Source of the DNA: Moniliella sp. 'wahieum'
Lineage: Eukaryota
NCBI GenBank assembly: GCA_003971905.1
Contig: RSEE01000053.1
Span: 372,001-436,000, forward strand
Direction of reading: 5' to 3'
DNA length: 64,000 bases
Position numbers and translations under genes: made by a program
Part shown: piece after piece, positions 14,419 through 49,341 of the stretch
Layout of the letters: the number at the start of each line of letters is the position of its first letter
Numbering within the stretch: position 1 is the stretch's first letter
The notes under the pieces: model-generated
Told to the model about the DNA's origin: nothing
Database searches by the model: none
Seen by the model: only the letters and a program-made list of their open reading frames with translations

Positions 14419-14821
14419 GCCTGCTCGCTCGTCCCACAAAAGCGCCGGCGTGCGCACGCAACCCTCGCCTCCCACCGTCCGCGCCGTCTGCTCTGCTTCG
14501 ATCCAGAGTTGCTGCCGTCGCGTAGAAAAAGTCGCGATGCTCGGGTGGGCGGCGATGGTTGTCCCCCCTCCGCTCCGCTCCCCTCTTCCCATCCTGCCCT
14601 CCTTTGTTTGACACCGCTCATCTAAGCCCCCTCCCTCCTATGCATCTGGCGCCTCACATGCACCTTATCTGTCGTGCCCATACAGTAGCCAGTAGCTAGT
14701 ACCTAGTAACTCCCAGCCTACCATAAATACCTCTCCCGACGCCGAGAGAGCCAGGTGAAGCAGTCGGCCAGACTTTTGTGGCAATGGCGTGTGCCCCTGG
14801 AAGCAAAAAGTAGTTGAAAAA

Positions 14822-14908
14822 GGGGTCCGCCCGGGATCGAACCGAGGACCACCTCTACGAGCGAGTCAAGCACCCTAAAGAGGCATGATACCACTACACC
14901 ACGAACCC
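14822..14908 (-). tRNA. tRNA-Pro(AGG) with a 15-nt intron
   Basis: GGGTTCG..CGGACCC acceptor stem; CCTCT-TTAGGG-intron-T-AGAGG anticodon arm; GGTTCGATCC T-loop. Confidence 0.93.
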
Positions 14909-15352
14909 CAATTGGCTGCAAGTGTGATTGGTAATTCCTTATGCAGGAGATTATGGTTCTGGCACCGACATGCACGCAGTTTCCCCAAACGCCCTTTCTC
15001 TCCTAGGTGCAAATGTGGACAGCAACAAGAACCGGTTTCAGTCAAGCAAGGTAACCTCCGACGAAGTTGAGTAACCCCCACTACCGTACGTCCCATCCCA
15101 TCGTCTGACTCGCAAACAATATATGGTCAGCTAGTGGTATAGCGCAAGCGCGAGCAGGAAATAGGTTGTTCCACTCAGTCACCTTTCATCATTCCCTATT
15201 GTGCTTGTCTCTTTCCTATGGGCCAGTTTCCATAGTTAAACCCTGCATTGTTTGCATCCATGTCTTGTCCAGAGCCTAAGGCGGGGACAGAAAGGGTCCT
15301 GCACCTAACCGGTCTACGCATCCGTCGTGCGCTGCTGCTTGGTGCCACCCAA

Positions 15353-17000
15353 TTAGGACATCAGTGAAGTCGCCAGCAGATCAGGACCCTTTGGTGCCCG
15401 CCATTCGAGTCCACACCGCATGTAGCGTACGTGGATACGAATGAGCGTCACTGGCAGTCCCGTGAGCGAGGAAGCATCTTCAAGGTGACACATCATCAGA
15501 TAATTCCTTCCCGTGCTCAAGCATCTTGCTCTCCGTCTTGGAGTGTGTCCCTGGTACAAGGCGTTCTTCTCGCATTCCGCTCGCTCCAACAGCCGAAGGG
15601 TTCCTTCCCCCATTGTTCTAACGATGTTGCGCTTCTGTCGTGTACCTTGCTGCACGCAACCATCGCGTCCCTTGTGTCCGAGTCCCATAAAGTGTCAAGT
15701 GCGGTCCACCTCCTTCCTGATCCTCCGAATACTCCAGGTCCCATCGCTCGGTAGTCCATATGCCATGCCTTTCTTGCACGTCTCGTCTGCTGCTGCTCCA
15801 GTCGGCGCGTTGGGAATGTGGGTGTCGGGGAGGGGACGAGAGCGAGAATCGGGTCCCGGGTGCCACAGGTCCCACACAGCCTACCAAACTGGAGACTGGG
15901 GATGGGATTGGGTATGGGTGCAAGCCAAGATGAACCCTAGCGAGGCAATCAGACCAACACTTGCACGTGCTGCCTAACCAACGACACAGCGTACGGAGCG
16001 GGAGATGAATCTGAGCCTGTGTGTCGGTGAGCTCGGAGCGCTTGGGCTGGATTGGGAGGAAAGCCAAGTGGAGCTGAACGGATTGCTGTGCGGAACCGCA
16101 TGGCGCCCTTTGGCGCGTTGAGCTTCTACAGTGGCTCCTGCTGGCTCTTGGCCTTCATCTTCTAGCAATGCTTGCGCGCGTCGGAAATGCGTTCGCCGCG
16201 TATGCGGCCGAGGGGGCCAGAACCCAATGCGGTACTAAAATAGTCGTTGACCTCGTTGACCGCAAAACACGTGCGTGGGACGTAATGCACGAGGAGAGCG
16301 GGCAGCCCCTTGCACTCATCCGAAGAGGCAGGCTCATAAACATGGCAAGGTAATCGACGTTTCTACCTGGAGCGTAACTCGTCCCCTCGGATCCGTGGAA
16401 ACTCGGCACAGATGAAAGCATCAAGCTCGGATAGCGCATCGTCCAGCTCACCCTCCATCTGCGTGGTATGGAACAAGTGACGCAGCTTCGTCTGAGTATC
16501 GTACCGCCACAGTAAGACGCGTCCCTGAAGGGTAATGTAATGCCATCCAACGCGGGCATGTCGCCTCAGGCTGTTCAGCAGGTGCCGGTGGGACGTCGGC
16601 AACAATTCTCTCCTCAGACGGTAAGCGCCCAGGACCATGACCCCATCCTCCCGAATCTGGTCACGGCCCCGTTCGACGCACTTGCGCAGGTTGAGTGCGA
16701 GGCCTAACGGCAGTAATACCAGTCGCAGTTCTCGTTCCCTTCCGGAGCAATCCAGCGTTGAGAGGGGGTATCATGTAACATAGATCCACCGGCCCAAAGC
16801 AAGGAGATGAGGGGTATACCAGAGGAGCGTGTTGGCGAGTGTGCGACAGCGCACAGTGTTGAAAACGTTGGTGAAATCGAACATGGTGACGTGGTTAAAT
16901 GTGCCCAGTTCCGGGCCCTCCTCCCCCCTTGCGCGATGCTACCACTGAGCAGGGAGGAGCGAGCGGGTGGGAACGCTCGCACGGACGATGCCGTTGGCAC
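15353..17000 (-). pseudogene. Fragmented orphan reading frame of unknown function
   Basis: Consecutive minus-strand protein-like segments (GLALNLRKCVERGRDQIREDGVMVLGAYRLRRELL, LAFLPIQPKRSELTDTQAQIHLPLRTLCRWLG); no recognised motif. Confidence 0.35.
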
Positions 17001-17691
17001 ACAGCCGGCAAATTCGTTCCCCGCAGGCGATGGGTCGTAAGGCGGGATGCCAACAGGATCCCATGGCCCGGAGCCGGAGCAGTCCCGTGGGATGCCACCG
17101 GCGAGGGCGGTTAAAGCGGCATGGGTCTGAGTGTGCTGATCAAAGCGGGGAAACCAATCTCGGCCGAGCCCATCTTAAACGCTTCCCCTGTCGGTCGGAT
17201 TGGAAAAGGGGGTGCCCGGCACAGTGCCACGCAGCCTGTGGTGCGGCTCGCATGAGTGCGGCGTGGTGCTGCCAAATGCTGGGCCCGAGCCGAGGTTGAA
17301 GAGATCCGCCTCGCCCGCGGAATGGAGCGTGTCGAAGCCTGCCGACGTCTGTGAGGCGAGGCGCAATGGAGAGTTCGCAGGTGAGAATGGCGTCGCGCTA
17401 ATAAAACGCGTCGATCGCGTTGCTTCACCCCAGTGCTGATATAATAGCACGTGCAGTGCACAAATCCGGCCCCAACAGCGATGGACAGTGGAACGGTGGG
17501 CGGTGGAACGATAGCCCATCTGGGGTTGGCGCGCGTACGGAGGGTCAGCCTACGGCACCCACGCCTGGTCTTCGACTGTATGGTATGTTGTCCATTGCTG
17601 CATGCGCCTGTACGCAACCTCACCTCTTCTCCCTCGCGATATGCAAGCTCTCAGATCGGATAGCCCAAACAAACCCAAGCAAAAGAAAAAG

Positions 17692-17791
17692 TGACTGCCC
17701 CCAGAATCGAACTGAGAATAACAGAGCTCAGAATGAGCCGTATGATCGCGCATCGCCACAATCTGTCGTGATACCTTTTCACCAGGCAATC
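17692..17791 (-). tRNA. tRNA-His(GTG) with a 29-nt intron (17727-17755)
   Basis: GATTGCC/GGCAGTC acceptor stem; GTGA/TCAC D-stem; ACAGA-TTGTGG-intron-C-TCTGT anticodon arm; CTCAG-TTCGATT-CTGGG T-arm; T-rich terminator follows. Confidence 0.92.
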
Positions 17792-18664
17792 CTTGGTGGG
17801 GCATTCCAGCTTGTTGAATCAAACTTAAGCCTCCATCTTCTCTCGCCAATTGAAACCACACATGAAAACCAGATTCTTTGCCCTTGCTTCTCGTTCCCCT
17901 CATCAATCACACCGGTTATTCTTCATGCCCCTTGTTGGGGTAGACCCAGCGCACAAAAGGCACGCTAAAAGAACTCCACTCGCCTGGGTCTCGCTGTAGT
18001 GATACCACCCAAAGTAAACCCCCACTGTCACGGGCGGGCACCGCCAGGGGGCCCGCCGGGGGGGAGGTTGGGGATACAAAATCCCTTGGAGGTCATCTCC
18101 AATGAAGGCCGACGCACGGTCGTTCCGCGTGCTTGGGCTGATTGGTGCGTCCCAGCGAGGTGAGGGACAAGGAGTGGCCTCTCAGCCTGTAGCAGAGGCG
18201 GCTGCAGGTGTAGGCTGCGTAGGACCAGCTTGGGCAGCAGTAGCGTGTGTGAAGCCTTCGGGCTCAGGGACGGGAAGTAGTAGACATATAGCAATAACGG
18301 GGGCTTGTTTGGCACGGGCGCAACAGATAAAGATCGAGGTAAAGCGGGGGCGTGGCGACAATATTGTTGTCGCAAGAATACCAACGACTCCCTTGGTGCG
18401 TCCCGACTTCAACTTGAGCACAAAGCGACTTATCTGGGCGCAGTGCAGTGGGTAGAGCAGGAAGGCCTTAGTTAGCTCGAATGACCATCTCTGATCCGAC
18501 GGCACCTAACACGAAGGGGGGCTGCTGTGCGCACCCTCCAACTCATCATTCTTTGTCTCCCTGCTCTTCTCATCAAACCTCATTGCCACTCTGGAAGACT
18601 TGCATCTCACCACCTAGATTCCGCCTGAAGGATGGGACGCTTTCTCATTCGAGCACGAACACAA

Positions 18665-18762
18665 GGCAATGTGCCCGAGCGGTTAAGGGGATTGATTAGA
18701 ACTCTCATATTCTAACCATCAATTAGGCTCTGCCTGCACAGGTTCGAATCCTGTCATTGTCG
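18665..18762 (+). tRNA. tRNA-Ser(AGA) with a 16-nt intron
   Basis: GGCAATG/CATTGTC acceptor stem; ATTGA-TTAGAA-intron-A-TCAAT; long variable arm AGGCTCTGCCT; GGTTCGAATCC. Confidence 0.95.
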
Positions 18763-19589
18763 TCTTTTTATTCATCGGGTTTACCTGCTTTTTTTTATTA
18801 GCGTATATACATTCGTGCACGAAGGAGAGACTATGGTTGTTGTGCCAACCGAAAGGTAGTACATGAGGGAAAACCGCAACACCGGGGGAGCCCTGAGTAA
18901 GAAGAAGTTGCTTCTGCCGTATTGGGTTACGCCTGGGGTAGAGAGTAGACTGGGACGGGGCAGAGTGAGTTGCGGCAGCGGCAATAACTTTTTGGCTTTT
19001 GCAACACAGGGCCGACCCCAGTTGGGACTTGGACAGTGCAGAGTGAGCAGCGGCGAGGCGGCGAGCTTGTATCCATGCTTCTTGGATTTGCTCACTAAAT
19101 CTTCGTCTCCTTTCGAGACGAAGGCTCCGCGTCCGTGTTATTATCTTCAGAAATGTCTCTACCATCTCGGTCTCAGCATCTGCGCGTCGGGTGGTGGTCG
19201 TCTCTCCACCCGCGGCTCAAATGTGCCAACACGCTGGTGTTTTGCATCCGCAGGCGCATACTTTATTGATGGGACACATTCTTTCTTCAAAGGGCGATAC
19301 TGGTTTCCCTTTTCTGTGAATGCAGGAACACCCTGGCCTTCCGTGACGCGTGAACCGAAACTGAGGCCGGTCAACCCGTCGAGAATGGCTTCCCAATGCT
19401 CACCCCATGGGCGCGAGCGTACTTACATCAACATAGGGTACTCGGAACGGTTTCGAATCATCTGCAAGATCCAGATGAGCGATGAAGGGCGGCAATGAAG
19501 ACTTTCGGCCAAAACGTGAGGACAGGGGAAGACCAACGATGCTGCTTTCGCAACAGTTCCTCCGCCTCTTGACAGCCCCCGCAAAAAGT

Positions 19590-19661
19590 TGCCTCCTAGC
19601 CGAATCGAACGACTAATCTTCGCATTACGAGTGCGACGCCTTACCATTGAGCCAAAGAGGC
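19590..19661 (-). tRNA. tRNA-Thr(CGT), intronless
   Basis: GCCTCTT/AGGAGGC acceptor stem; TCGCA-CTCGTAA-TGCGA anticodon arm; GTTCGATTC T-loop. Confidence 0.92.
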
Positions 19662-20371
19662 ATCGGGTTCTCTTTAGTGATTGTTAGAGTCACAAGCGTA
19701 CCATCAGTTGCAGTTGCAAGGTTCTTCGTTCCCCCTCGAAATACATCCCGTCGGCACCGTTTTGCTATATGGGATCAAGTCACAAGCCGGTCTCTGGCTT
19801 GGTGAAGTCGGCATGTCTGTTTTGCCTTCTTCATGAGGCTTCCTTTTCATTCACGGCCGGCTTTATCCTTTACCTGATGTGTCTTCGCTCTCTCCTTTTC
19901 GCCTCCGGTTTGGTAGTTTATAAATGTAGGCATCACTTCTTTCATTGGAGAACTGCGGGCTTCACTGACAACGTTCCACGACTGTATGATTGCCATCAGC
20001 GAAGATGATGAATAACACTTAAGAACTGCGCAACAGCCCTTACAGTCCTAAGTCCCTTTTCTCACCGGCTGCTGAGGCGATGGAAGAGAAGCGTTGAGCC
20101 TGTTGAGAGCCATGGGGGGCGCTTTGGATTCTATGTCTTCGTCGTGCCTTATATTATTCTTGGATCATACAGAAGACGGGCCGATGAATTAATGAGACTA
20201 GGCTAATATGCTTGAAAGCAGTATCTTCCACTCCACCCCCTCTCTTTTTTGGCTTCGAAATGAGTGAGACGTGTGTGTCATCATGCATCAACAGCCACAG
20301 TTCGATTCATCCCTGCACGATGAGAGATATACACATTCCAAAGACCCTCTCTCCCTTCAGGCAGATAGGCG

Positions 20372-20533
20372 CTGGACCACTTGTTGAACCATCGGGTGGC
20401 CCGTGCTTTGGCCAATGTCCCTTCAGTTCCTCCTCAAGCCTGGGAGTTCCATTGTTTTCTCTCCGTCTTTTGTTTTCCCTGTTCCGCAGCTTAGCCCCTG
20501 GTGGCGACTCGCTGCTTGTTGTTCCTCTGTAGG
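20372..20533 (-). repeat. Dispersed repeat B, interrupted copy (continues at 21314-21356)
   Basis: Homologous to 1451-1665 once the solo LTR at 20534-21313 is removed. Confidence 0.75.
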
Positions 20534-21313
20534 TGTCACGGGGCGACATCTGAGCCACCTTGCACAGCCGCCTCCACTTCCTTATCGTCGCTATCGCTTC
20601 TCGGCTTCTTTCCCTATCTCGTCTATCTCGACTCGTTTTCTCTCTCTTTCGCTATCTTGACTGGGATCGTCTTCCTATCAACTAAAACCCACAACTATCT
20701 TGGTTTCTCCGCTCGCGCTCGTCTAAAATCCAAAACACAACACATGGTTTCTCGACTCGGTTTCTCGACTCGTTTCTCGTCTCGGGTCCATTTTGCCCTT
20801 GACCCTCGTCTCGCCTCGCCTCGTCCCTCTCGCGCTTGGTCCTCTTTCCTTCCCTTTGACTCGTTTCCCCTTTTACTCTGTAGACCTCTTGGTCTTGCCT
20901 TGTTCCTTTTCTCTTCTATAAAACCTGCCTGTTCTTAGATCCAATGATGATGGCCCAAGCCGCCGACCATTCTTTCCCCTTTCCCCTTCACCCTTCTTCT
21001 AGGCTCTCCACTTCTAGAAGGAACACCTCGCTCAGCTCGCTCGCCCTCCCTCGCCCATCGGAGCACACCGCTTTTGCGCCAGCCCCTACACACGCAACCT
21101 CTGCTCGCAGACCGCTGCACCTTTCGCAACCTCTGCTTGCAGACCGCTGCTCAGGCTCTGCTCGACGCACCGCAAAGCACCACTCACGACCTTCCTTCGT
21201 TCACGCCAGTGAGCCTTGGACTTTGGATCTGAAACGCGTTCAGTCCTCCGTGAGTACCGTCTCCGATGGGCACAGGGAAGGTCTCCGACTGGGAAGCCAG
21301 CCACCCCATCACA
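20534..21313. mobile_element. Solo LTR (780 bp) with 5-bp TSD GTAGG
   Basis: Starts TGTCAC and ends TCACA; GTAGG at 20529-20533 and 21314-21318; the flanks rejoin into repeat B; internal TATAAAA near 20917. Confidence 0.82.
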
Positions 21314-21520
21314 GTAGGCGTTGCTGGTTGGCTTAGACCACCACCACCACCAGTGCGATTGTATCACCCTCGAGTACCATCAGGACTCCAGGTCTCATGG
21401 CCACTTGGACCAGCTCTACCCTTTTGCGCGAATTGCTCCACTCTGTGTTATAAAAGTTGGCGACAGGATATCTTTCCCCAAACAAATATTTAAAAAAAAA
21501 CATTTAAAAAACAGACAAAA

Positions 21521-21618
21521 CGACAATGACAGGATTCGAACCTGTGCAGGCAGAGCCTAATTGATGGTTAGAATGTTGGAGTTCTAATCAATCCCCTTAA
21601 CCGCTCGGGCACATTGCC
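21521..21618 (-). tRNA. tRNA-Ser(AGA) with a 16-nt intron, second copy
   Basis: Exons identical to 18665-18762; the intron differs at 3 positions. Confidence 0.95.
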
Positions 21619-27747: not shown

Positions 27748-28637
27748 TTAAAGCTTCTGCATGGCAGCAATGTCGGTCGACTGGACGTAGTCCTCGCCCT
27801 GGGTCTCGATGGCCTCCTGGAGGTCTTCCAGCGAGACCTTGTCGTCCTCGACGACAAGGGTGATCTGCAGCTTGCTGACACCGTAGCCGACGGGGACAAG
27901 CTTGGACGAGCCCCAGACAAGGCCCTCCATCTCAATCGAGCGCACCGTCTTCTCGAGCTCGGGCATGGGCGTCTCGTCGTCCCACGGCTTGACCTCGAGG
28001 GTAACGACCGACTTGGCAGGGCCCTTGGGGCCCTTGGCAGCCTTCTTCTTCTCGTACTCGGCAACACGCTCCGCCTTGACGCGGGCAGCCTCGGCGTCCT
28101 CCTCCTCGTCGTCCGAGCCAAAGAGGTCAACGTCGTCGTCGTCCTCCTCCTCAGCGGCGGCGGCAGGGGCAGCAGCAGCAGCGCCACCGGCAACGCCCGC
28201 AGCGGCCAGAGCCTTGGCAGCAGCAGCCTTGTCGCCCTTCAGGGCCGGGTGCTCAGCCTCGTACGAAGCGACGTGGGCGAACCAGCGGGCAACGTGGGGG
28301 TACTGGGCAAAGACACCGGCGGCGACAGCGTCGTAGGTGGCAACATCGGCCTGGGTGGGCTCAGCGCTGGCAACACAGAGGAAGGTCAGTATGGGGAAGG
28401 GGAGGGGCAAGGCAAGGGAGGATGGGAAGGGTCAGAGTGCCATAGAAGTGGTTGTCTTCACAGCAAAAAGTCGCGGGGTCTTACGCCGCTGGGCTTGGAA
28501 ACACGGACCATAGCGTTATGATCATCAGGCAGAGGGGGGGGGAGGGGGGCGACATACCCAGCGATGTAGGACTTGTCGGCGAGGAACTTCTCGAGGCCAG
28601 CGAGGGCGGCGGCGTTGCTGAAGTCGGGGAGGGACAT
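27748..28637 (-). CDS. EFB1: Translation elongation factor 1-beta
   Basis: [44 protein letters not shown] and [11 protein letters not shown]; intron 28367-28557. Confidence 0.98.
28430..28530 (-). ncRNA. SNR18: Box C/D snoRNA U18/snR18 in the EF-1beta intron
   Basis: Box C TGATGA (28527-28522); guide TGGTCCGTGTTTC, antisense to LSU rRNA GAAACACGGACCA; C'-like GTGAAGA; box D CTGA (28435-28432); same host intron as yeast snR18. Confidence 0.85.
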
Positions 28638-32056: not shown

Positions 32057-34766
32057 GGCGAGGGGAGGCAGAGGGAGGGCAGAGGATGGGAAGGACGAGG
32101 GAGCGGTGGCGGGGGACGGCGGCGGGCACGGCGGCGGCGCGTGTCTGATGGTGGTGGCGGGTCTAATAGCGGACGGGTGAGGCCGAGGGAGGGGCGCTGG
32201 GCAGCTGGCTGCGCTGGGCATCAGGAACGGAACGCAGGGCCCAGGCACAGCGGGCACCTGCCTGCTGGTACGCAAGCCAGGTACGCGCTACGCCCCAGCG
32301 GGTGCCCGGTGCGCCGTCCCCGGTCCACCGACACCGCTCAGCCTGAGCTCAGCCTGGGCGCTCCGCCAGGAACACAGCCGCGTGCCTGAAAATGCCGACA
32401 CTGCGCCCGTGCGGACCGCTTTCAGCCATCGCAGGCCACCGCACCCGCCAGCAGCCGCACCGCGCCCTGGCGCACCCGTCACCTGTCGCCTATGGCACAG
32501 TACTCAGAGCCTGTGATTTCTCACGCCCCCGCGCTGGACGGGGGCAGTGTGCCACGACCTCGGCCGAGGGGAGAGTGGGCAGCGCTGGGGGTTATTGATT
32601 CTTGGTTCCTGGTTCGGTGCCTTAAGTTTCGCAGTTGGCGTTTGGCGTTTGGCGTGTCTTAGCACGTCCTGAGTGCTTCAGCTCCTCCTCCATCCACAAT
32701 CGACTGCGTACGTGTCTCCACTCATGAGCAGCAGGCCGCGGGAGTCGCTCTTCACCCCCTGTGGCTCGGTCATGCCCAGGGCACAACGTGTGGAGGGGAA
32801 GGGGTTGGTCTGTGGGACTTGAAGCTTGAAGCTTGATGTGGATCCGTGTCTCCTGTGGAGGCGGCTTCCGAGGCGGAGCGTTAAGTCACTGATAGTGACT
32901 AGTGACTAGTGACTACTAGTCAGCGCGCTCTCGCTCTGTGCTGAGCCCCAGCCCTGAACATTTCAGCCCTCGGCCTCAATGTTCAATGGCAGCGGACTAT
33001 GCCGTCAACTCCCAGGCCGTGCGTGCACCTTGTCAAAGCTCTGCAAGCGGCCAACAGCTTCCACACACGTTCAAGAGGGCCAACAATTTCAACATGGCTT
33101 CGTGCACTACTGGCTAGCCAGCCACGCCGGCTTACCTGGCTCAGCGCTTTGGCCTCAAGCTCAGAACACTCAGTTGAGTACTCACAGTACTCCTCATACT
33201 CGTAATCATTAATCGATAATCATTAATCACATGTCACAGTGCTAATAGACGTACCATCAGTGGCGTACCACCATCGTAAAACGCGAAATCCATACTCGAC
33301 AACTGATCATCGATCAGACTAGCTACTTGGTAGACTAGCTACTTAATTGGTTAAGTGACTGTGCGCACTATAGCACCCACTCACGTGCACCCTCGCCTCC
33401 CCCATAGTGCAGATTGTGATGGCCTCCCACTTCACCGACCACTCTGGCTACACGCCTCTTCTCATTCTCGTGACGCGTGACGCGTGAATCAAGAATCTGT
33501 ACCAGTTAATCAGTCCTGAGCGCGTCATCCATGGCATGCATGTCACCGGTCACCGGTCACCGGCAAAGATGCTGATGTGCAAAAGTGGTGCAAAAGACCG
33601 GTCGGTGCCTGGGTGTGCCTGGGTTTTCCCTGTCTTCAGCTTCTTCGGCACACTTCGGCAGGCCTCGGCACTAGTTTCAGCGCCGGGCTTTGGCGTAGCA
33701 TCCAATGCGTAAATGTATGGCGAGGCCCTGAGGCTCAGCCTGAGGCCGCCGCAGCCCGTGACAGAAGGTGCCGGGGGGCCCAAAAGATGATCTAAGAGGA
33801 TTTACATATTTACTTCTTAGCTCCCTCGATCCCGGCTCATACTATAGGTGGTACTGCTCCATGCCGGGTACCCGGTACCCGCTGCCCGGCGTGTCTCTGC
33901 CAGTCTCTGGCCCTTTTGGTTTCAGACCTCTCAGAATACTGAAGCTCTGAAGCTCTGAGATCTGAAGCTTGAAGCAGACCGAACCTGCAAACCCTTTTGA
34001 TCGAGATCTCAGATCTGTGAGATCCCAGATCTTCTCCAGCCACAAGTGCAGCCACTCGCAACTCGCAACTGTTGGTTATTGGCGAAACCTCCGAAGAAAT
34101 TCGCTCGCACATGAATGTTTCAGCATTCCCCCCCGCAATGTTCTTCCTTATGCGTTACGCGTTACGGGGTTTGCAACCGTCCGCACTTCCAAAACCAAAC
34201 TTTATCCATCCCACGGGCACAGGCTGGCACAGGCTGGCCGTAGGCCCTGCCAGCCAAGCCTAAGCCACGTACGGTACGTACGTCCCTTGCGTGCGCCCTG
34301 CGAACACAGGCTTTCATTGAATATTGAGCGAGCCTGGTAGACGTTAGATGTACCGAGGCGTAGCCGCGGCGTAGCGTTTCTTGGTTCCTGTTCCATGGTT
34401 TGCCAAGGCCACGAATCTCAATCCAGCAGCGATATACGATGGCAGCTATTGCAGACCATTACAGTTCCTGGTCTCGCGGTGCTGAACGATACCCTGCCGA
34501 TGGGTGCCGAACAGCGCTGTATACTTCAGTAGGAGTTACTGTTAGTTACTCTTCCTGTTGTTACTATAGTCACGTGTTACATGTTACGCCGGATTGGCCG
34601 GTGGCTGACTAGACTGCTCTGGATTCTTTGTATTCTCTTGCGGATCGACGCGCTATCAGATCTCTGATCTCCAATGTCAGATGTCAGACAGTGTGTAGAA
34701 CCTGCCGCTGCATCTATCGACTATCGCACTCGACTGAGACTCTAACTCGGCACGCACAGTACTCAC

Positions 34767-34977
34767 TGTTGACCACCAGTGGTCTAGAGCCCATCGGCCT
34801 TCAGTGACACGTGGCCCGATCCACACAGTGCACCGGGGCAGTGAGTTCCGACCCTTCCACGGGTCTCCACTGGCCTCCAGGCCAGGAGCCTATCAAGGCC
34901 CATAGCTCTAGCTCTCCTTAGCTCTTGAATGCCATCTCCATCGACCATCGCCAGCATCGCTAGCTAGGCCTGTGACA
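34767..34977 (+). repeat. 5' LTR of the copia element
   Basis: TGTTGACC...GCCTGTGACA, direct repeat of 39813-40023. Confidence 0.98.
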
Positions 34978-34990
34978 GAGCTACAATCTG
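34978..34990 (+). promoter_or_regulatory. Primer-binding site complementary to a tRNA anticodon arm (best match: spliced tRNA-His(GUG))
   Basis: GAGCTACAATCTG abuts the LTR, lacks TGG, and pairs with CAGAUUGUGGCUC with one G-U. Confidence 0.75.
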
Positions 34991-35123
34991 AAGCACCCCA
35001 CTGGCGCAAAGGATCAATACTCAGCACCACCATCGGCGCCCACCGTCACCACCACCACCAACGCCACCATCGGCACCACACACCAACCAATTCAAAAAAA
35101 AAACAAAGGAAAAATCAGCCACC

Positions 35124-36355
35124 ATGCCCCCCGAACTGGAAGAAAACACCCCTCCTCCCGAAGTCTCTGTCATCGAAGAGGCGCAGGACATCGACGAACC
35201 GACCACCACCCTGTCTCCGACCCGACCTGGCAACAGGCCCTCACCGCCGTCAGAGACAACCTCCTCGCAAGCACCCGCGCGTTCAAGCCCACCAGCGCTG
35301 ACAATCTCCGCTCCACATGCCGCTCGTTCGCTACGGATGCACACACGGCGGCGTATGGACCGAAGAGCAAGAAAACACCGGGCGGAAAGGAAAATTGGAT
35401 CTACACGCTCACCCTCGCGTTGGAGAAATATGTATTGGCCGTTGAATTCACGAAGCCGCAAAACACCCGTGAGGCCCTTGCATCCGCGAGTGAGGACATG
35501 GCCGAGCTTCGCCACGCTGAGAAACGCGCGTCAAAAGAGATCGAGCGTACCAACGCGACGCGCAAGGACGCCTTCCGCGACCCCACCGAATATGTGCTCT
35601 GGGAGCCCTCCATCCTCAACATCCTGGACCGCATCCACCCCGCCGCGAAGGACATCGTTCGCTCCGGTCCATCGTCACCACACTACGACTCGTCCCTCGA
35701 TCTACGCCTCCAGAACCTTCTGTGGTCCCACCTCCCGAACGACGTTCAATCTGCCATTATTGCACAGGACAACGTTGACACGTCAGCTGACTTGCTCCGT
35801 GCCCTGCGAAACAAATACGGTACGGTCGACTGCAAGACGTATCATGAATTGTCCAGTCGCTTTCACCACTGCTACCAAAACCGGCGCAGCGGGAGCGCGT
35901 TCCTATCTGAAATGGGGACGCTCCGCAACCGGATCAGCGCAACCACACCGATGTCGGACGAGCAATTCCGCCGTATCCTCGTCGGGGCCCTCCGCGACCC
36001 TGGTGACCGTCGCCGCCTAGAGCACATGACTCTGGCGGAGACAATGCAAGACGTGGAGAGAATCCCAGCGGACCCAGAGTACAGAATTCCGTACCGGGGC
36101 CGTCACCCCCGGACCGCCAACTCGGGCGCTGGCAAACACGACAGCGCGGGATCCCAGCAGCATAGCGGGGGTCCTCCTGCCGGTGCATCTCCCCGTAGCG
36201 GGGGTGCTCTTGCGAGAAAGCCGTCCGGCCACACCGGGGTTCCTTCGAACAACAAATGGCACCGCAACAGCTCCGCGCGAGCGCACATTGCCACCGAAGA
36301 CGACGTCTCCGAAGGGGAGACCCTGTCTGTGGACCTTGCCCTATCTGACAAATAG
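35124..36355 (+). CDS. Copia Gag
   Basis: Helical capsid-like region (LLWSHLPNDVQSAII..SADLLRALRNKYG); ends at TAG 36353-36355; N-terminal frameshift(s). Confidence 0.8.
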
Positions 36356-39300
36356 GAACTCGCGGGCAACCAGGACATCCAGTCTCGTCACGACTCGGGC
36401 GCGGATCCTAGCATCTGGAAGGATCTCAGGGTATTCAAAACCCTCAAGCCCAGCAACCGCTCAATCGAAATCGCTGATGGAAAACATATTAAAGCCAGTG
36501 GACGCGGAACATGTAGCATCGGTATCAAGTGTACCGACGGCAAATGTATCCATGTAGACCTACCCGGCAGTCTATACGTCCCCGGCATAGCAAGCAATCT
36601 CACGAGCGTAGCGCAAATAAGTGACGCAGGCCACGCATCCTGGTTCGCCCCCCACCGAAAAGGTATCTGGTTAAATGACAAGCATGGCAAATATCACCAA
36701 ATCGCGGATTCCTCATACAAGCTGAACATCGTCCCGAAACCGACCCACAAACGAACACGCGGCCAAAGCTGCCGTCGCCACCCAACACACCGCAGCCAAC
36801 ACCATCGAGCACGTCATGTACGTTCACCAACAGTACAACCACGCCGCGCTAGACCTACTCCCGACACTAACCGCCAACGCGCGAGCGAGCCTCCGCGTCA
36901 GCCCTGCCCAAATCCGACGCATCCGCCCCTTCTGGCATTGTCCCACCTGCACAAAAGCTCTGGCCAAAGCGCCCAGCCCCTTCGCGCCACGGCCGCCGCA
37001 TTTCGGAACGTCCTTTCGAAGTACTGCACGCCGACGTAGTCGACCTCCCTCGCATCACTGGCATGGGACATGGATACGCCCTGGTCGCGGTTGATGACTG
37101 GAGCCGTTACACCTTCGCTGTTCCCCTAAAGACGAAAGGACAAGCCACGGCGGAGCTGAAAAAACTCATCACCCGCGAGCAACGCATCGGAAAGGACCGT
37201 CTGCTTCGCATCTTGAAGACAGACAATGCCCCCGAGCTCACCAGCGCACCGTCCGTTCCTTGAATCCGAAGGTATCACGACGGAAACCACCATACCAGGC
37301 CAAAGTCAATCAAATGGGGTGGCCGAGCGAGCCATCCAGGCAATCACCACACGCGCGCGCCAACTCATCATCGCCTCGGGCCTCCCGACATCAAACTGGT
37401 GGCAGGATGCCTTGCTGGCAGGGTGCTGGACGCACAACCTCATGCCACCGACATCTCCACGCCAGGGCACACAATCTCGGGCTGAGCTGTACAAGGGGTC
37501 ACCCCCACCGCTGCCAATGCACGCCTTCGGATCCTTGGCGTACCTTCACCTGGCCCAGGACCAACGTGACCATAAGCTCAGTCCGCGGGCTGTCGAAGCC
37601 ATGCTCGTCGGGTACGACGCAGGTCGAGGTACAAAGGGTTGGCGCTGGGCTGTGTACGACCCGTCCATGGGCACGTTCCGATCCCAATGGGCAAAACCAT
37701 ACAAGTGGACCAGCGCCAATACCACGAGGTTTTCCCCGACCGCTTTCCGCCTGACGTATCTCGCTTCCCGCTCAACCCCTGCCTGACAGAACTATGACTG
37801 ACACTGAAACCAAAAGGGAGAAGAAAAAATGAACAAAATTGAAGTTGCAAATCCCAACACACCACCGAGAATCAACACTGATACTGACGCGACCATCGCA
37901 AGACAAAACGACACCCATCCAACCACCCCCACCACCAGACGGTACCCGCCCGGACCCACCAGCGCCGTTTTGACCTTGACTGGGCACAGCTCCCCGTAGC
38001 GGACGACCCTCATGATGGTGACTTCCACGCACACGCTGCCGCGCTGCCTCCGGTTCCCCTCCCTGACGGTAGTCGTAGTCCTGCGATCGGCCTACGCTTC
38101 CCACTGCCCGACACTGCCCTGCCGCGTACAGCGACGGTCTCCATCCGCCTGAATACAAGGCGATGATCGCCCTTAGCGAGCCAGGGCCGCACGAGCGCAT
38201 CCAGCTCACCAAGGACGGAGTACCTGTTGCACCCAAGACAATGAAGGGCCTCCAATCACACCCCTCATTCGAACCAGTGCTGGAGGCGATGCGCACGGAA
38301 ATCGACACCCTAGCCCGCTACGGCACATTCGAAGTCGTCACGCCCCCTCCAGACGCGCAGCTGCTGATTGGTCTATGGCGCATCAACACCAAAACGGACG
38401 CGGACGGAAATTTCCTACGCTACCGAGCCCGTCTCGTTGGGGGGCCACCAGCAGGATGCTGACACATGGGGACAAACATTCGCCCCTGCCGTGCGCACTC
38501 CTGCCATCCTCAGCCTTATCGCCCTTGCTGGAAAGTTCGGCCTCCACCTCTTCACTGCTGATGTGCACTCTGCCTATTTGAACGCTCCCCTCACGGAAAA
38601 AGTGTACCTCCGCCCACCCCCATTCTTTCCCGAGGAAAAAGGCAAGGTCTGCGTCTCCGGAAAAGCCTATATGGCCTCCACCAATCCGGCGCAAACTGGG
38701 CGGTATTCATCCGTGACTTGCTCCGCGGAGACATGGGTTTTGTACAATCTCTGGCTGAGCCGTGTTGTTCATCCGACCCCGTAAAGGCGACACGGTCCTC
38801 CTTGCCGTGCACACCGACGATCTTCTCATCGCTGCACGTCTCACGCACGCTACGATTCCTTCCTCACTGAGATCAACACCCATATCGAGGTGCGGGGAAA
38901 CGGCCCCCTACACTACCATCTTGGCTGCCAGTACGACACCATAAACGGGAAACTGTACCTTAGCCAGCCAAAATTCATTGAGGAATCCATTGCCAAACAT
39001 GAGGTTCCGCCACCCCTGGTTATGGGCCTCCCCCACCCCAGCAAGATGATCCCCGCGCGCACCGACCCCGAACCGCCCGCACTGCCCGCCGAGAGACGCG
39101 ACTATCAAGCCCAAAAGTAGGATCTGGGCTGTGGGCTGCCCGCATGTGCCGCCCTGATGCGCTGTTCGGCATCTCAGCTCTAAGCCGAGCAACTGCCGAT
39201 CCCTCCAAGGCCCACCGCGCTGCGGCAACAAACTTCCTCCGCTACCTCTACGGTACCAAGGGCTACGGTCTCCGACTAACACCCGAGCCTGACGCACCCG

Positions 39301-39818
39301 CTCTCGCGCTATACACGGATGCCGACCTGGCTGGAGACCCTGACCAATGGCGTTCCACGTCGGGATGCCTGCTTTTCGTCTACGGGGTTCCAGTGTCCTG
39401 GAGGAGCGTGCGTCAACCCAAGAGCGTCACCAACACTGCTGCGGCCGAATATACGGCGGGATATGAGGGCCTCATTGATGCGAACTACGTTAAAAACATC
39501 TTACTGGAGCTCGGTGCCATCACCTCAGACGAGCCCATACACTGGTACTGCGACAACATGGCGGCACTTGCCTTGGCCGAAAAAGTGGGCAGCACGGGCA
39601 AACTACGTGAGCTGAACATCCGGTACCACAACGTACGCCAGCATGTCGACTCGGGCGAAGTCAAAATCGCGCACATTGCTGGAAACGAGAACCCGGCCGA
39701 CATCCTCACCAAACCAGCCACTAAGGTCTCACTCCTGGCCAACTTGCCTCGCCTCAAGCTTGAGGACGTTACAACCTTCCATCGTGCCACTGAGACCTCT
39801 GGCCAGCGGGGGTGTTGA
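36356..39818 (+). CDS. Copia Pol (protease, integrase, RT, RNase H); starts in frame with Gag after the TAG
   Basis: PR DSGA at 36392; IN H..H..CPTC, DDWSRY, TDNAPE and SNGVAER; RT YRARLV, DVHSAYLNA and HTDD; RH YTDADLAGD, CDN and ENPADILTK; multiple frameshifts. Confidence 0.93.
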
Positions 39819-40023
39819 CCACCAGTGGTCTAGAGCCCATCGGCCTTCAGTGACACGTGGCCCGATCCACACAGTGCACCGGGGCAGTGAGTTCCGACCC
39901 TTCCACGGGTTTCCACTGGCCTCCAGGCCAGGAGCCTATCAAGGCCCATAGCTCTAGCTCTCCTTAGCTCTTGAATGCCATCTCCATCGACCATCGCCAG
40001 CATCGCTAGCTAGGCCTGTGACA
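39813..40023 (+). repeat. 3' LTR of the copia element
   Basis: Identical to the 5' LTR except gggtTtccac vs gggtCtccac. Confidence 0.98.
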
Positions 40024-41845
40024 CTCACTGTACTCACTCTCAATGTTAGGTCCAACTGTGTGTTGCATTGCGTAGTGGGTTCCTGCGTTCCTGGTCTGTA
40101 TACTTTAGGCAAAAGAGGATGAAGCATGAAGCATGATGCATGATGCATGATGGGTTACTAGCTTTACTAGTTGCTGGGTATGGAGATTCCCTCTGACTAG
40201 CTGTTTCCTCTTGGACTGAGAGGGGACGTTCCCGGTGGGTGCTACCCTGGGCTGCGACACTGCCACAACACCTCCCTCAGCCACCGGTTTCACCTGCCCC
40301 ACCACCTACACGCCCTAGTACAACTATTAAACGTCCATCAACCGTTCTAACAGTTCCAACCCTTCTAACCCTTCCAACCGTTCTAACCTTCCAACCGTTC
40401 CAACTGTTGACCTCTGGTCATTTATGGCCAAGGTCACTTCCGAGTGACATCATGTGTGATGCGCGTGTGATGTTTTCTGACGTGGCGTTTCCGACTCCAT
40501 GATGACTTGGATTCGCCACCGCCTTAGCAATTTGGCCTCATATCGACCACCATTCCCATTTGCTGCTCTTTGAGCTCTTCCTGGGCGTTAATAACCTTCC
40601 AACCGTTCCAACAGCCCACTGGAACGGATTCCTCTGGCTCCTCTTTTTAATCCTAGAGACAACAGCAACGCAACAGAGACACTTCGAGCACACATGTCTG
40701 TCGCATAAGTCACCTACTGTCATCCGTTTGGTTTGCACCGCCTCTCCCCGTCCCAGATGGGCGAGAGATAGTCCAGCGCTCATCGATTATCTCCCTCACG
40801 GAGCGAGAGGGGACAACAAGTCCGTTGAGATGTTACTAGTAGAGGAGACATCAACAGGCTCTACTAGCGATTCGTGCTCTCACCCGCGGGCAAATGAAAA
40901 CAACGCAATTATAGTTATATCCCTTGGAGATCGGAAAGGTGTCCCTCCACGTGCCGCAGGTCTCGTCCGACATGGGTGGTCTTTCGGCGGTATATGGTGC
41001 TGCGTACAAGGTACCTCGGGCTTTTGCGCAGTTATGACGATGTGAAGCCGTGCGGACACGGGTACCAGTCGGGTCGAGATTAAACGAGGGAGAGCAAGGT
41101 CCTGTCAGAGGCGGGGGGGAAGGCAAAAGTTCGTTCATGGAAGGAAACAGAAGGCATCGGGCAGAGAACAGAGAACAGAGAACAAAAGCAAAAGGAAGGG
41201 ATGAGCGAGAGACGTGGGGATGGCGGGAGGGGGAGGGGGAGTGAAGGCCAAACCCTTTCAGGACTGTAAGACTAATAATAGGCGACCAGGAGATGCGATA
41301 ATTGGAGCTGATGGGGAGGAAGAGAAGCTGACTTGACGCTTGCACCGAGAGTGGGAGTGGGAGCGGGAGTTGGGACACCTGTATATTGGGTGCTGGAAGA
41401 TGAGCAGCGAATGAGAGATCCACGGTGCCTGGTTTGGTCCATTGGCGAGAAAGGAGAAAAGACCGCCAAAAGGACCGGGAAGGGGCGCGGCACTGGTCGA
41501 GCCAGAGGGGGACGAAATCGGGGCGGAGAGTGTGCGCGCAAAAAATAAGGCAGCTCGCACGTGGCCTATATACGTCGGACTAGTCGGTCCCACCGTGATG
41601 GCACGCATCTTTTGACCAAGTAAATTCTCACGCCTGAAAAAGGAACGACTTCCTTCCAACCCCCCCCACCTCGCCCCCTTTTGGGGGGTAGCTTTGAGGG
41701 GCGGAAAGGAAGGAGGAACACGGGCGCTTCTCCGTGTGCGCACAAATGTCTCCATTTGACCAGGAGAAAAACCGTTGCACGATGCGGCATGCATTGTCCT
41801 CCTCTGTTCGTTGGGCATATACGGACTGAAAGCCAAAAGAAGATG

Positions 41846-49223: not shown

Positions 49224-49255
49224 ATTGGACTGACCCAACCAAAATTCCAAAAAAG

Positions 49256-49341
49256 CGCCCCACGTGGGACTCGAACCCACAACCGTGAGATGGACCTCTT
49301 GTAGTAAGAGTCTCAAATTCTACCGATTGAAATAGCGAGGC
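49256..49341 (-). tRNA. tRNA-Lys(CTT) with a 13-nt intron
   Basis: GCCTCGC/GTGGGGC acceptor stem; TGAGA-CTCTTA-intron-A-TCTCA; GTGGG-TTCGAGT-CCCAC. Confidence 0.9.

Follow-up and report, generated by a model that had tools for sequence, protein, structure and literature searches.

A probable internal tRNA primer site at the LTR edge of a Ty1/copia element, with spliced tRNA-His(GUG) and tRNA-Tyr(GUA) as candidate primers

For half-tRNA priming by Ty5 and copia, the cited reference is Ke et al. 1999. In Drosophila copia and in yeast Ty5, one half of the initiator tRNA-Met serves as the primer of reverse transcription, and the end of this primer arises through cleavage inside the tRNA (PMC5371799). 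Candida families possess primer sites that match internal regions of tRNA-Arg(UCU) and of tRNA-iMet (PMC4139406), and elements of the fungal copia clade FunCo1 carry behind the LTR a site that can pair with an internal stretch of tRNA-Lys (PMC5445492). Among plant elements, a 1/2 tRNA-Met is assigned to Osser, Bryco and part of Gymco-II and a 1/2 tRNA-Ile to Bianca; those parts of the plant survey that we draw upon list no half-tRNA of the His or Tyr type, and tRNA-His appears in them as a full-length primer only, in 15% of the gypsy TatIII elements (PMC6317226). In the portions of these four sources used here, priming by half a tRNA is already published for iMet, Arg, Ile, and Lys (PMC5371799, PMC4139406, PMC6317226, PMC5445492). 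The half-tRNA mechanism itself is known; a His or Tyr half as primer would be new, would widen this list, and would suggest that the choice of the tRNA is free. Among the papers listed in our literature searches, none describes a His or Tyr half as primer; supplements and further papers may contain such a description. The 13-nt primer site described below and its His and Tyr forms occurred in no relevant paper, the sole match being a paper on a bacterial ICE, and the site was absent from those supplements of PMC5445492 that were examined.

The element considered here resides in a stretch of 64,000 nucleotides with a G+C content of 58%, the whole of which was analysed and is referred to as the window. 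It is the sole LTR retrotransposon described in the window and spans positions 34767-40023 on the forward strand. Its 5' LTR (34767-34977; 211 bp, with TG...CA ends) is directly repeated as the 3' LTR (39813-40023), and a BLAST comparison of the pair yielded one mismatch in 211 bp, at 34865/39911. The five bases CTCAC flank the element on either side as a target-site duplication (34762-34766 and 40024-40028, read from the sequence). The boundary of the LTR is exact, the contexts of the 5' and 3' copies diverging at the first base past ...ACA. Because the two LTRs are near-identical and the duplication is intact, the window copy, its primer site included, was probably reverse transcribed and inserted only recently. 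The eight bases AGCGGGGG (39805-39812, forward strand) form a purine-rich tract directly 5' of the 3' LTR, and this position makes them a likely candidate for the plus-strand primer site.

The Gag region (35124-36352, forward strand) starts with an ATG at 35124 and shifts frame after about position 35208 in the window copy; its match to the family of Ty5 Gag N-terminal domains (PF17241) is weak and below the cut-off (E 0.031). The Pol region (36356-39815, forward strand) encodes protease, integrase, reverse transcriptase and RNase H and changes frame several times in the window copy; Pfam matches along it comprise Pol_BBD (36356-37036), rve (36871-37260), SH3_retrovirus (37217-37783), and RVT_2 (38368-38781 and 38562-38867). 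We assign the element to Ty1/copia because its Pol domains follow the order protease, integrase, RVT_2, an arrangement found here together with direct TG...CA repeats and a 5-bp duplication. An in-frame TAG (36353-36355) separates the gag and protease frames; it could serve for read-through or have arisen by mutation in the defective copy. The coding region of the window copy is broken, its domains sitting in different frames. An intact relative of 1004 amino acids, P0001, is encoded on a public contig of 5089 nt, carries rve, RVT_2, and SH3 domains, and is 96% identical to the window element over the RNase H part. When P0001 was compared with the window element by tblastn, it aligned only as seven pieces in three frames; hence, pol is defective in the window copy, and intact members exist elsewhere in the family. 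The window copy may have been mobilised in trans, or some of its frame breaks may be assembly errors.

Among named proteins, the closest Pol relative of the element is only 37% identical. The family is an isolated one, and its host is a poorly sampled fungus of Ustilaginomycotina-like type. This placement of the host is suggested by the C-terminal exon of an elongation factor 1-beta gene at 27748-28431 on the reverse strand, whose best named relatives come from Tilletia, Jaminaea, Parajaminaea, and Sympodiomycopsis (67-70% identity; 81-84% for public contigs) and point to a Ustilaginomycotina-like basidiomycete. Searches with blastn and tblastx revealed no further copy of the element in the 64-kb window. 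Metagenome contigs searched with the gag protein gave 127 pattern matches, and viral contigs searched with a piece of the integrase gave three; none in either set was confirmed.

A tRNA gene at 17692-17791 on the reverse strand, found by ARAGORN in its intron mode (c[17691,17791]) and delimited by reading the sequence, is of particular relevance for the primer site. It encodes a full cloverleaf and consists of a 5' exon (17756-17791), a 29-nt intron (17727-17755) and a 3' exon (17692-17726) when the intron is placed at the canonical position 37/38. Splicing at 37/38 leaves a 7-nt loop, U32 U33 G34 U35 G36 G37 C38, with the anticodon GUG; ARAGORN puts the 29-nt intron after position 35 and labels the gene Tyr(gta), although an intron of this length can be accommodated just as well at 37/38. 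The known eukaryotic nuclear tRNA introns all lie at 37/38, and the three introns in the window that are unambiguous, those of two Ser(AGA) genes and of Lys(CUU), conform to this position. For this reason we read the gene as tRNA-His(GUG) and not as tRNA-Tyr. The same reading is favored because ARAGORN likewise misplaces the intron of the gene at 14821-14909, which reads Pro(AGG) when spliced canonically; because the acceptor stem has G1-C72 and A73, whereas eight of eight true tRNA-Tyr genes from metagenome contigs have C1-G72; and because a T-run terminator follows the gene on its own strand. Free folding of the pre-tRNA-His did not discriminate between splice registers. A search with the Rfam model RF00005 (E up to 10) reported the Thr and the two Ser genes and not the tRNA-His gene, a miss for which the 29-nt intron is the likely cause.

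ARAGORN run with introns recognizes six tRNA genes in the window as compared to two in its default setting, which misses the His gene. They form a cluster at 14821-21618, continued at 49255-49341, and comprise Pro(AGG), His, two Ser(AGA), Thr(CGU), and, further on, Lys(CUU). Five of the six carry introns, two of which are misplaced by ARAGORN with the consequence that the respective genes are mislabelled; the Pro(AGG) gene, for example, is called Glu or 'Stop'. Off-site intron placement by this program can thus lead to the misidentification of a tRNA.

The 5' LTR ends with ...CTGTGACA at 34977 and is followed by GAGCTACAATCTGAAGC at 34978-34994, a sequence without TGG. The core of the primer-binding site comprises the 13 nt GAGCTACAATCTG (34978-34990, forward strand); its first base adjoins the LTR, it begins with GAG, and it offers no TGG to the CCA end of a tRNA. 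When the tRNA-His transcript is spliced in silico, this core forms 13 contiguous base pairs with tRNA positions 40 to 28 (linear 27-39), among them a single G-U wobble in which T34982 faces G36. The complementarity covers the anticodon stem-loop and ends on the 3' strand of its stem. Since the unspliced gene pairs over 11 bases only (34980-34990), the last two pairs depend on splicing. The predicted energy of the duplex is -19.8 kcal/mol with the wobble and -20.1 kcal/mol for a perfect complement, a difference of about 0.3 that renders the wobble nearly free in annealing. Judged from these features, 34978-34990 is very probably the internal primer site of some tRNA, a site of the half-tRNA kind and not of the CCA-end type. 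That the primer is the host's spliced tRNA-His(GUG) is an evenly balanced proposition.

Most of this had been proposed in an earlier note on this DNA. It had described a primer site adjoining the CA of the LTR and lacking TGG, which the 34977/34978 boundary bears out, and had read the spliced product of 17692-17791 as tRNA-His(GUG), in agreement with the 29-nt intron at 37/38 and the G1-C72 pair. Splicing in silico reproduced its 13-bp duplex with positions 28-40 and one G36-U pair, and its statement that splicing is needed to create the last two pairs agrees with the 13 pairs counted for the spliced and the 11 counted for the unspliced form. A further match to a tRNA carrying GCUU at positions 24-27, which would have extended the duplex into AAGC (34991-34994, forward strand), found no support: none of the eight metagenomic tRNA-Tyr genes carries this extension, and only one of the four bases pairs with positions 24-27 of tRNA-His. 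The note had not recorded that pairing continues in the other direction, into the end of the LTR. There, the last six bases of U5 (34972-34977, forward strand) pair with positions 41-46 of tRNA-His through four Watson-Crick and two G-U pairs, making use of the variable loop of the tRNA, so that 19 contiguous pairs, three of them G-U, bridge the LTR junction at 34972-34990.

The spliced tRNA-His was used to scan the window on both strands. Apart from the self matches to the two exons of the tRNA-His gene, the 19-nt duplex is the longest match in the 64 kb. It is followed by seven duplexes of 13-14 nt that contain up to three G-U pairs, or in two cases no more than one; none of the seven reaches 15 nt. 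A 13-mer somewhere in the window (128 kb when both strands are counted) is not rare; one that abuts the LTR is, with a chance of about 7e-6 for tRNA-His at this fixed place if base frequencies are uniform. The other five tRNAs of the window form at most eight pairs within 34970-35040. Pairing beyond the 3' end of a primer has no known role, and that of positions 43-46 could have arisen by chance (about 0.02-0.05). The leader (34991-35123) was also compared with tRNA-His for additional boxes of the Ty1 type; the best match of 6 nt lies below that of typical shuffled sequences. A run of 13 bases at 37269-37281 (forward strand), inside the integrase coding region, is identical to linear positions 15-27 of tRNA-His, which immediately precede the segment complementary to the primer site; this identity is probably due to chance, about 0.1 such perfect 13-mers being expected per window.

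Four public sequencing runs hold parts of the element, and a contig spanning the primer site is present in one of them, run X1. Conservation of the site consequently refers to one extra copy, as the contigs of runs X2, X3, and X4 break at the LTR edge; the region of the tRNA-His gene has zero cover in all four runs. The X1 contig (5089 nt, about 96% identical to the window, spanning 34815-37500) has a depth of 30, a value that is not a copy number, and is evidently the contig encoding P0001. Unique DNA of the window is matched by two short contigs of this run with zero and one difference, respectively, at a depth of 2-3; run X1 therefore seems to hold the same or a very close organism, in which the element is apparently repeated. 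Among the changes listed between X1 and the window, a G>A substitution at 34974 is followed by none until 35087, and T34982 is kept. The substitution at 34974 converts the G-U pair with position 44 of tRNA-His into an A-U pair, and pairing is thus maintained. The 112 nt from 34975 to 35086 are, again among the changes listed, the longest run free of substitutions in 34815-35536, a segment with about 5% divergence around this run; on this basis, the probability of such a run is about 0.05 anywhere in the segment and about 0.002 at the site.

X1 has insertions of one to two bases relative to the window at 35208 (one base), 36742, 36977, and 37248. These coincide with frame changes of the window copy, for which reason it is the window copy that appears damaged. 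RIP-like mutation was considered as the source of T34982 and was rejected, the X1 comparison showing no excess of the expected changes (22 C>T and 12 G>A vs. 19 T>C and 20 A>G).

The main alternative to tRNA-His, and already named as such in the earlier note, is that the element is primed by a half of the host's spliced tRNA-Tyr(GUA), positions 28-40 of which would complement 34978-34990 without exception. In that event, the close match to tRNA-His would be due to two anticodon arms that happen to be identical except for position 36, and the U in the site could accept both tRNAs. We regard this as a genuine possibility, though one that we hold tentatively. The site is an imperfect complement of tRNA-His, with T34982 against G36, and pairs with such a tRNA-Tyr at 13 of 13 positions without any wobble. 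In Ty1 and in retroviruses, the primer serves as the template for the plus strand of its binding site, so that any base not matching the genuine primer ought to be lost after a few rounds of replication; the T34982 that is stable in both copies would accordingly fit a primer with A36, that is, tRNA-Tyr. Arms of this kind exist in nature: among 52 metagenome loci with the Tyr-arm pattern, eight are tRNA-Tyr genes with C1-G72, A73, and an arm that pairs perfectly with the 13-mer, two of them intronless (L141, L165) and six intron-bearing (L139, L143, L152, L170, L184, L181). They come from contigs with 23-50% G+C as against 58% for the window, and the flanks of L139 do not look fungal; such an arm is thereby shown to be possible, but not for this host. 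For the six intron-bearing genes, moreover, the perfect match presupposes splicing at 37/38, since the register chosen by ARAGORN puts A38 into those of the L139 type and reduces the match to 12 of 13. In five of these loci (L139, L143, L152, L170, L184), the tRNA-Tyr gene lies beside a tRNA gene with an AT-rich intron, identified by ARAGORN as Asn in four cases and as Pyl in L184, and the Tyr introns of the L139 group are placed one base off the canonical site by this program. With the gene at 17692-17791 read as His, the six tRNA genes that ARAGORN recognizes in the 64-kb window include no tRNA-Tyr; the window does carry the matching tRNA-His with its 13 pairs in the site and 19 across the junction, and the additional pairing in U5 fits the variable loop of tRNA-His. 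With a Tyr primer, the host's tRNA-His would have to share the remaining 12 positions with it fortuitously, for which we estimate a probability of about 0.005-0.02. The tRNA-Tyr of ascomycete yeasts carries A37, whereas the site requires G37. The arm was found in 132 viral and prokaryotic loci, 109 with G36 and 23 with A36; 79 of the former are located in tRNA-His genes, and none of the latter in any tRNA. From the half-tRNA-His primer of the earlier note, the internal anticodon-arm site at the LTR edge stands, with His somewhat ahead of Tyr as the candidate primer. As to the distribution of the arm, at least 79 tRNA-His genes of bacteria and phages in this set (L001-L132) have the CAGA/UCUG stem with a His loop, and many of them belong to Bacilli and Mycoplasma-like MAGs.

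Three other explanations are less probable. It is quite unlikely that neither of them primes, that the His match is a relic or a chance event, and that the 3' end of another tRNA binds downstream or a different primer is used. A TGG at 35003-35005, followed by eight bases to which the 3' end of a tRNA might pair, provides a place for such a primer, and the occurrence of 13-nt duplexes with tRNA-His elsewhere in the window, of which two have no more than one G-U, shows how a match could be fortuitous; yet this TGG is 25 nt away from the LTR, the six tRNAs of the window with CCA added pair there over no more than 7-8 nt, and the His/Tyr-type match begins at the first base behind the LTR and runs for 19 nt where the others reach 14 at most. 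The substitution-free stretch from 34975 to 35086 in the changes listed, with the probabilities given above, likewise speaks against it. Very improbable is a variant in which the His gene itself furnishes the perfect complement, its transcript being spliced two bases upstream at both sites to yield the anticodon GUA. The last two bases of the intron, AG before C38, do permit this register of the same length, and it is the one chosen by ARAGORN; however, the eukaryotic tRNA splicing endonuclease cuts after position 37, at a fixed distance from the body of the tRNA, the three unambiguous introns in the window lie at 37/38, and a tRNA of this kind would misread Tyr codons. Least probable of all is self-priming in the manner of Tf1, in which the 5' end of the transcript folds back onto the site behind the LTR and a cut creates the primer. 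The check for it that the earlier note had envisaged was run and gave no signal: the best pairing of 34978-35010 with the whole 5' LTR amounts to 7 nt, and 285 of 500 shuffled sequences reach 7 nt or more.

If tRNA-His is the primer, the events at this locus might proceed as follows. The tRNA-His(GUG) with its 29-nt intron would be transcribed and spliced at 37/38, its anticodon arm would open and anneal to the element RNA, and a presumed enzyme would cleave the 3' strand of the anticodon stem at the C40-U41 bond, leaving a 5' piece of about 40 nt. The 3' OH of this piece would lie opposite G34978, and reverse transcriptase could extend it into U5. The end of the LTR at exactly 34977 would follow from a primer whose 3' OH faces G34978. 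Both the cut site and the cutting enzyme are postulated in this scheme, as is the choice of His over Tyr. In tRNA-His, position 37 is normally occupied by the methylated form m1G. This modification would weaken pairing beside the wobble and block copying, and it would hamper priming by tRNA-His and tRNA-Tyr alike; a freshly spliced, still unmethylated tRNA might sidestep the problem.

A more specific, and in our view unlikely, version of priming by tRNA-His is that the whole spliced tRNA anneals across the junction of U5 and the primer site, forming 19 bp with positions 28-46, and is cut at 40/41 only then, within or at the edge of this duplex. Should it be true, the element would guide the making of its own primer, its mobility would depend on tRNA splicing, and the freshly spliced tRNA with an unmethylated G37 would be the form used. 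This version would also account for the choice of an intron-bearing tRNA and for the persistence of the G36-U wobble.

A match that depends on splicing ties the start of retrotransposon replication to the tRNA splicing pathway and lends itself to a simple genetic test. It also has a practical side: annotation pipelines that consider only the 3' ends of tRNAs, or only unspliced tRNA genes, will report elements of this type as having no primer site.

HERV-H is primed by the 3' end of tRNA-His. The window element resembles HERV-H and the plant TatIII elements in having possibly recruited tRNA-His as primer; theirs is bound by its CCA end at a site that starts with TGG, whereas positions 28-40 are matched here. 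With its TAG at 36353, the element has an in-frame stop between gag and pol, as reportedly does Tca2. It differs from Tca2 in the tRNA concerned and in the phylum of the host. In its primer site it resembles this gamma LTR of Candida albicans, whose site is described as having homology to an internal part of the elongator tRNA-Arg(UCU) (PMC4139406). FunCo1 provides a precedent for a fungal copia element with a site for an internal tRNA region behind the LTR; the tRNA is a different one, and FunCo1 was not detected in Basidiomycota in the portion of that study considered here (PMC5445492). Bianca, like Osser and Bryco, is a copia lineage with a half-tRNA site; the site of Bianca faces a non-standard anticodon pair, involving inosine 34, according to the relevant part of the plant survey (PMC6317226). 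There is also a likeness in kind to copia and Ty5, as far as they are described in the source used here: in these Ty1/copia elements, too, a site without TGG follows the LTR directly and is complementary to the stem-loop of a tRNA anticodon (PMC5371799), and the window element shares with Ty5, in addition, the weak match of its Gag region to the Ty5 type. It is set apart from copia and Ty5 by a candidate primer that is tRNA-His or tRNA-Tyr and not iMet, by the origin of the matching tRNA from an intron-containing gene with the spliced form as the pairing partner, and by the 6-nt pairing in U5.
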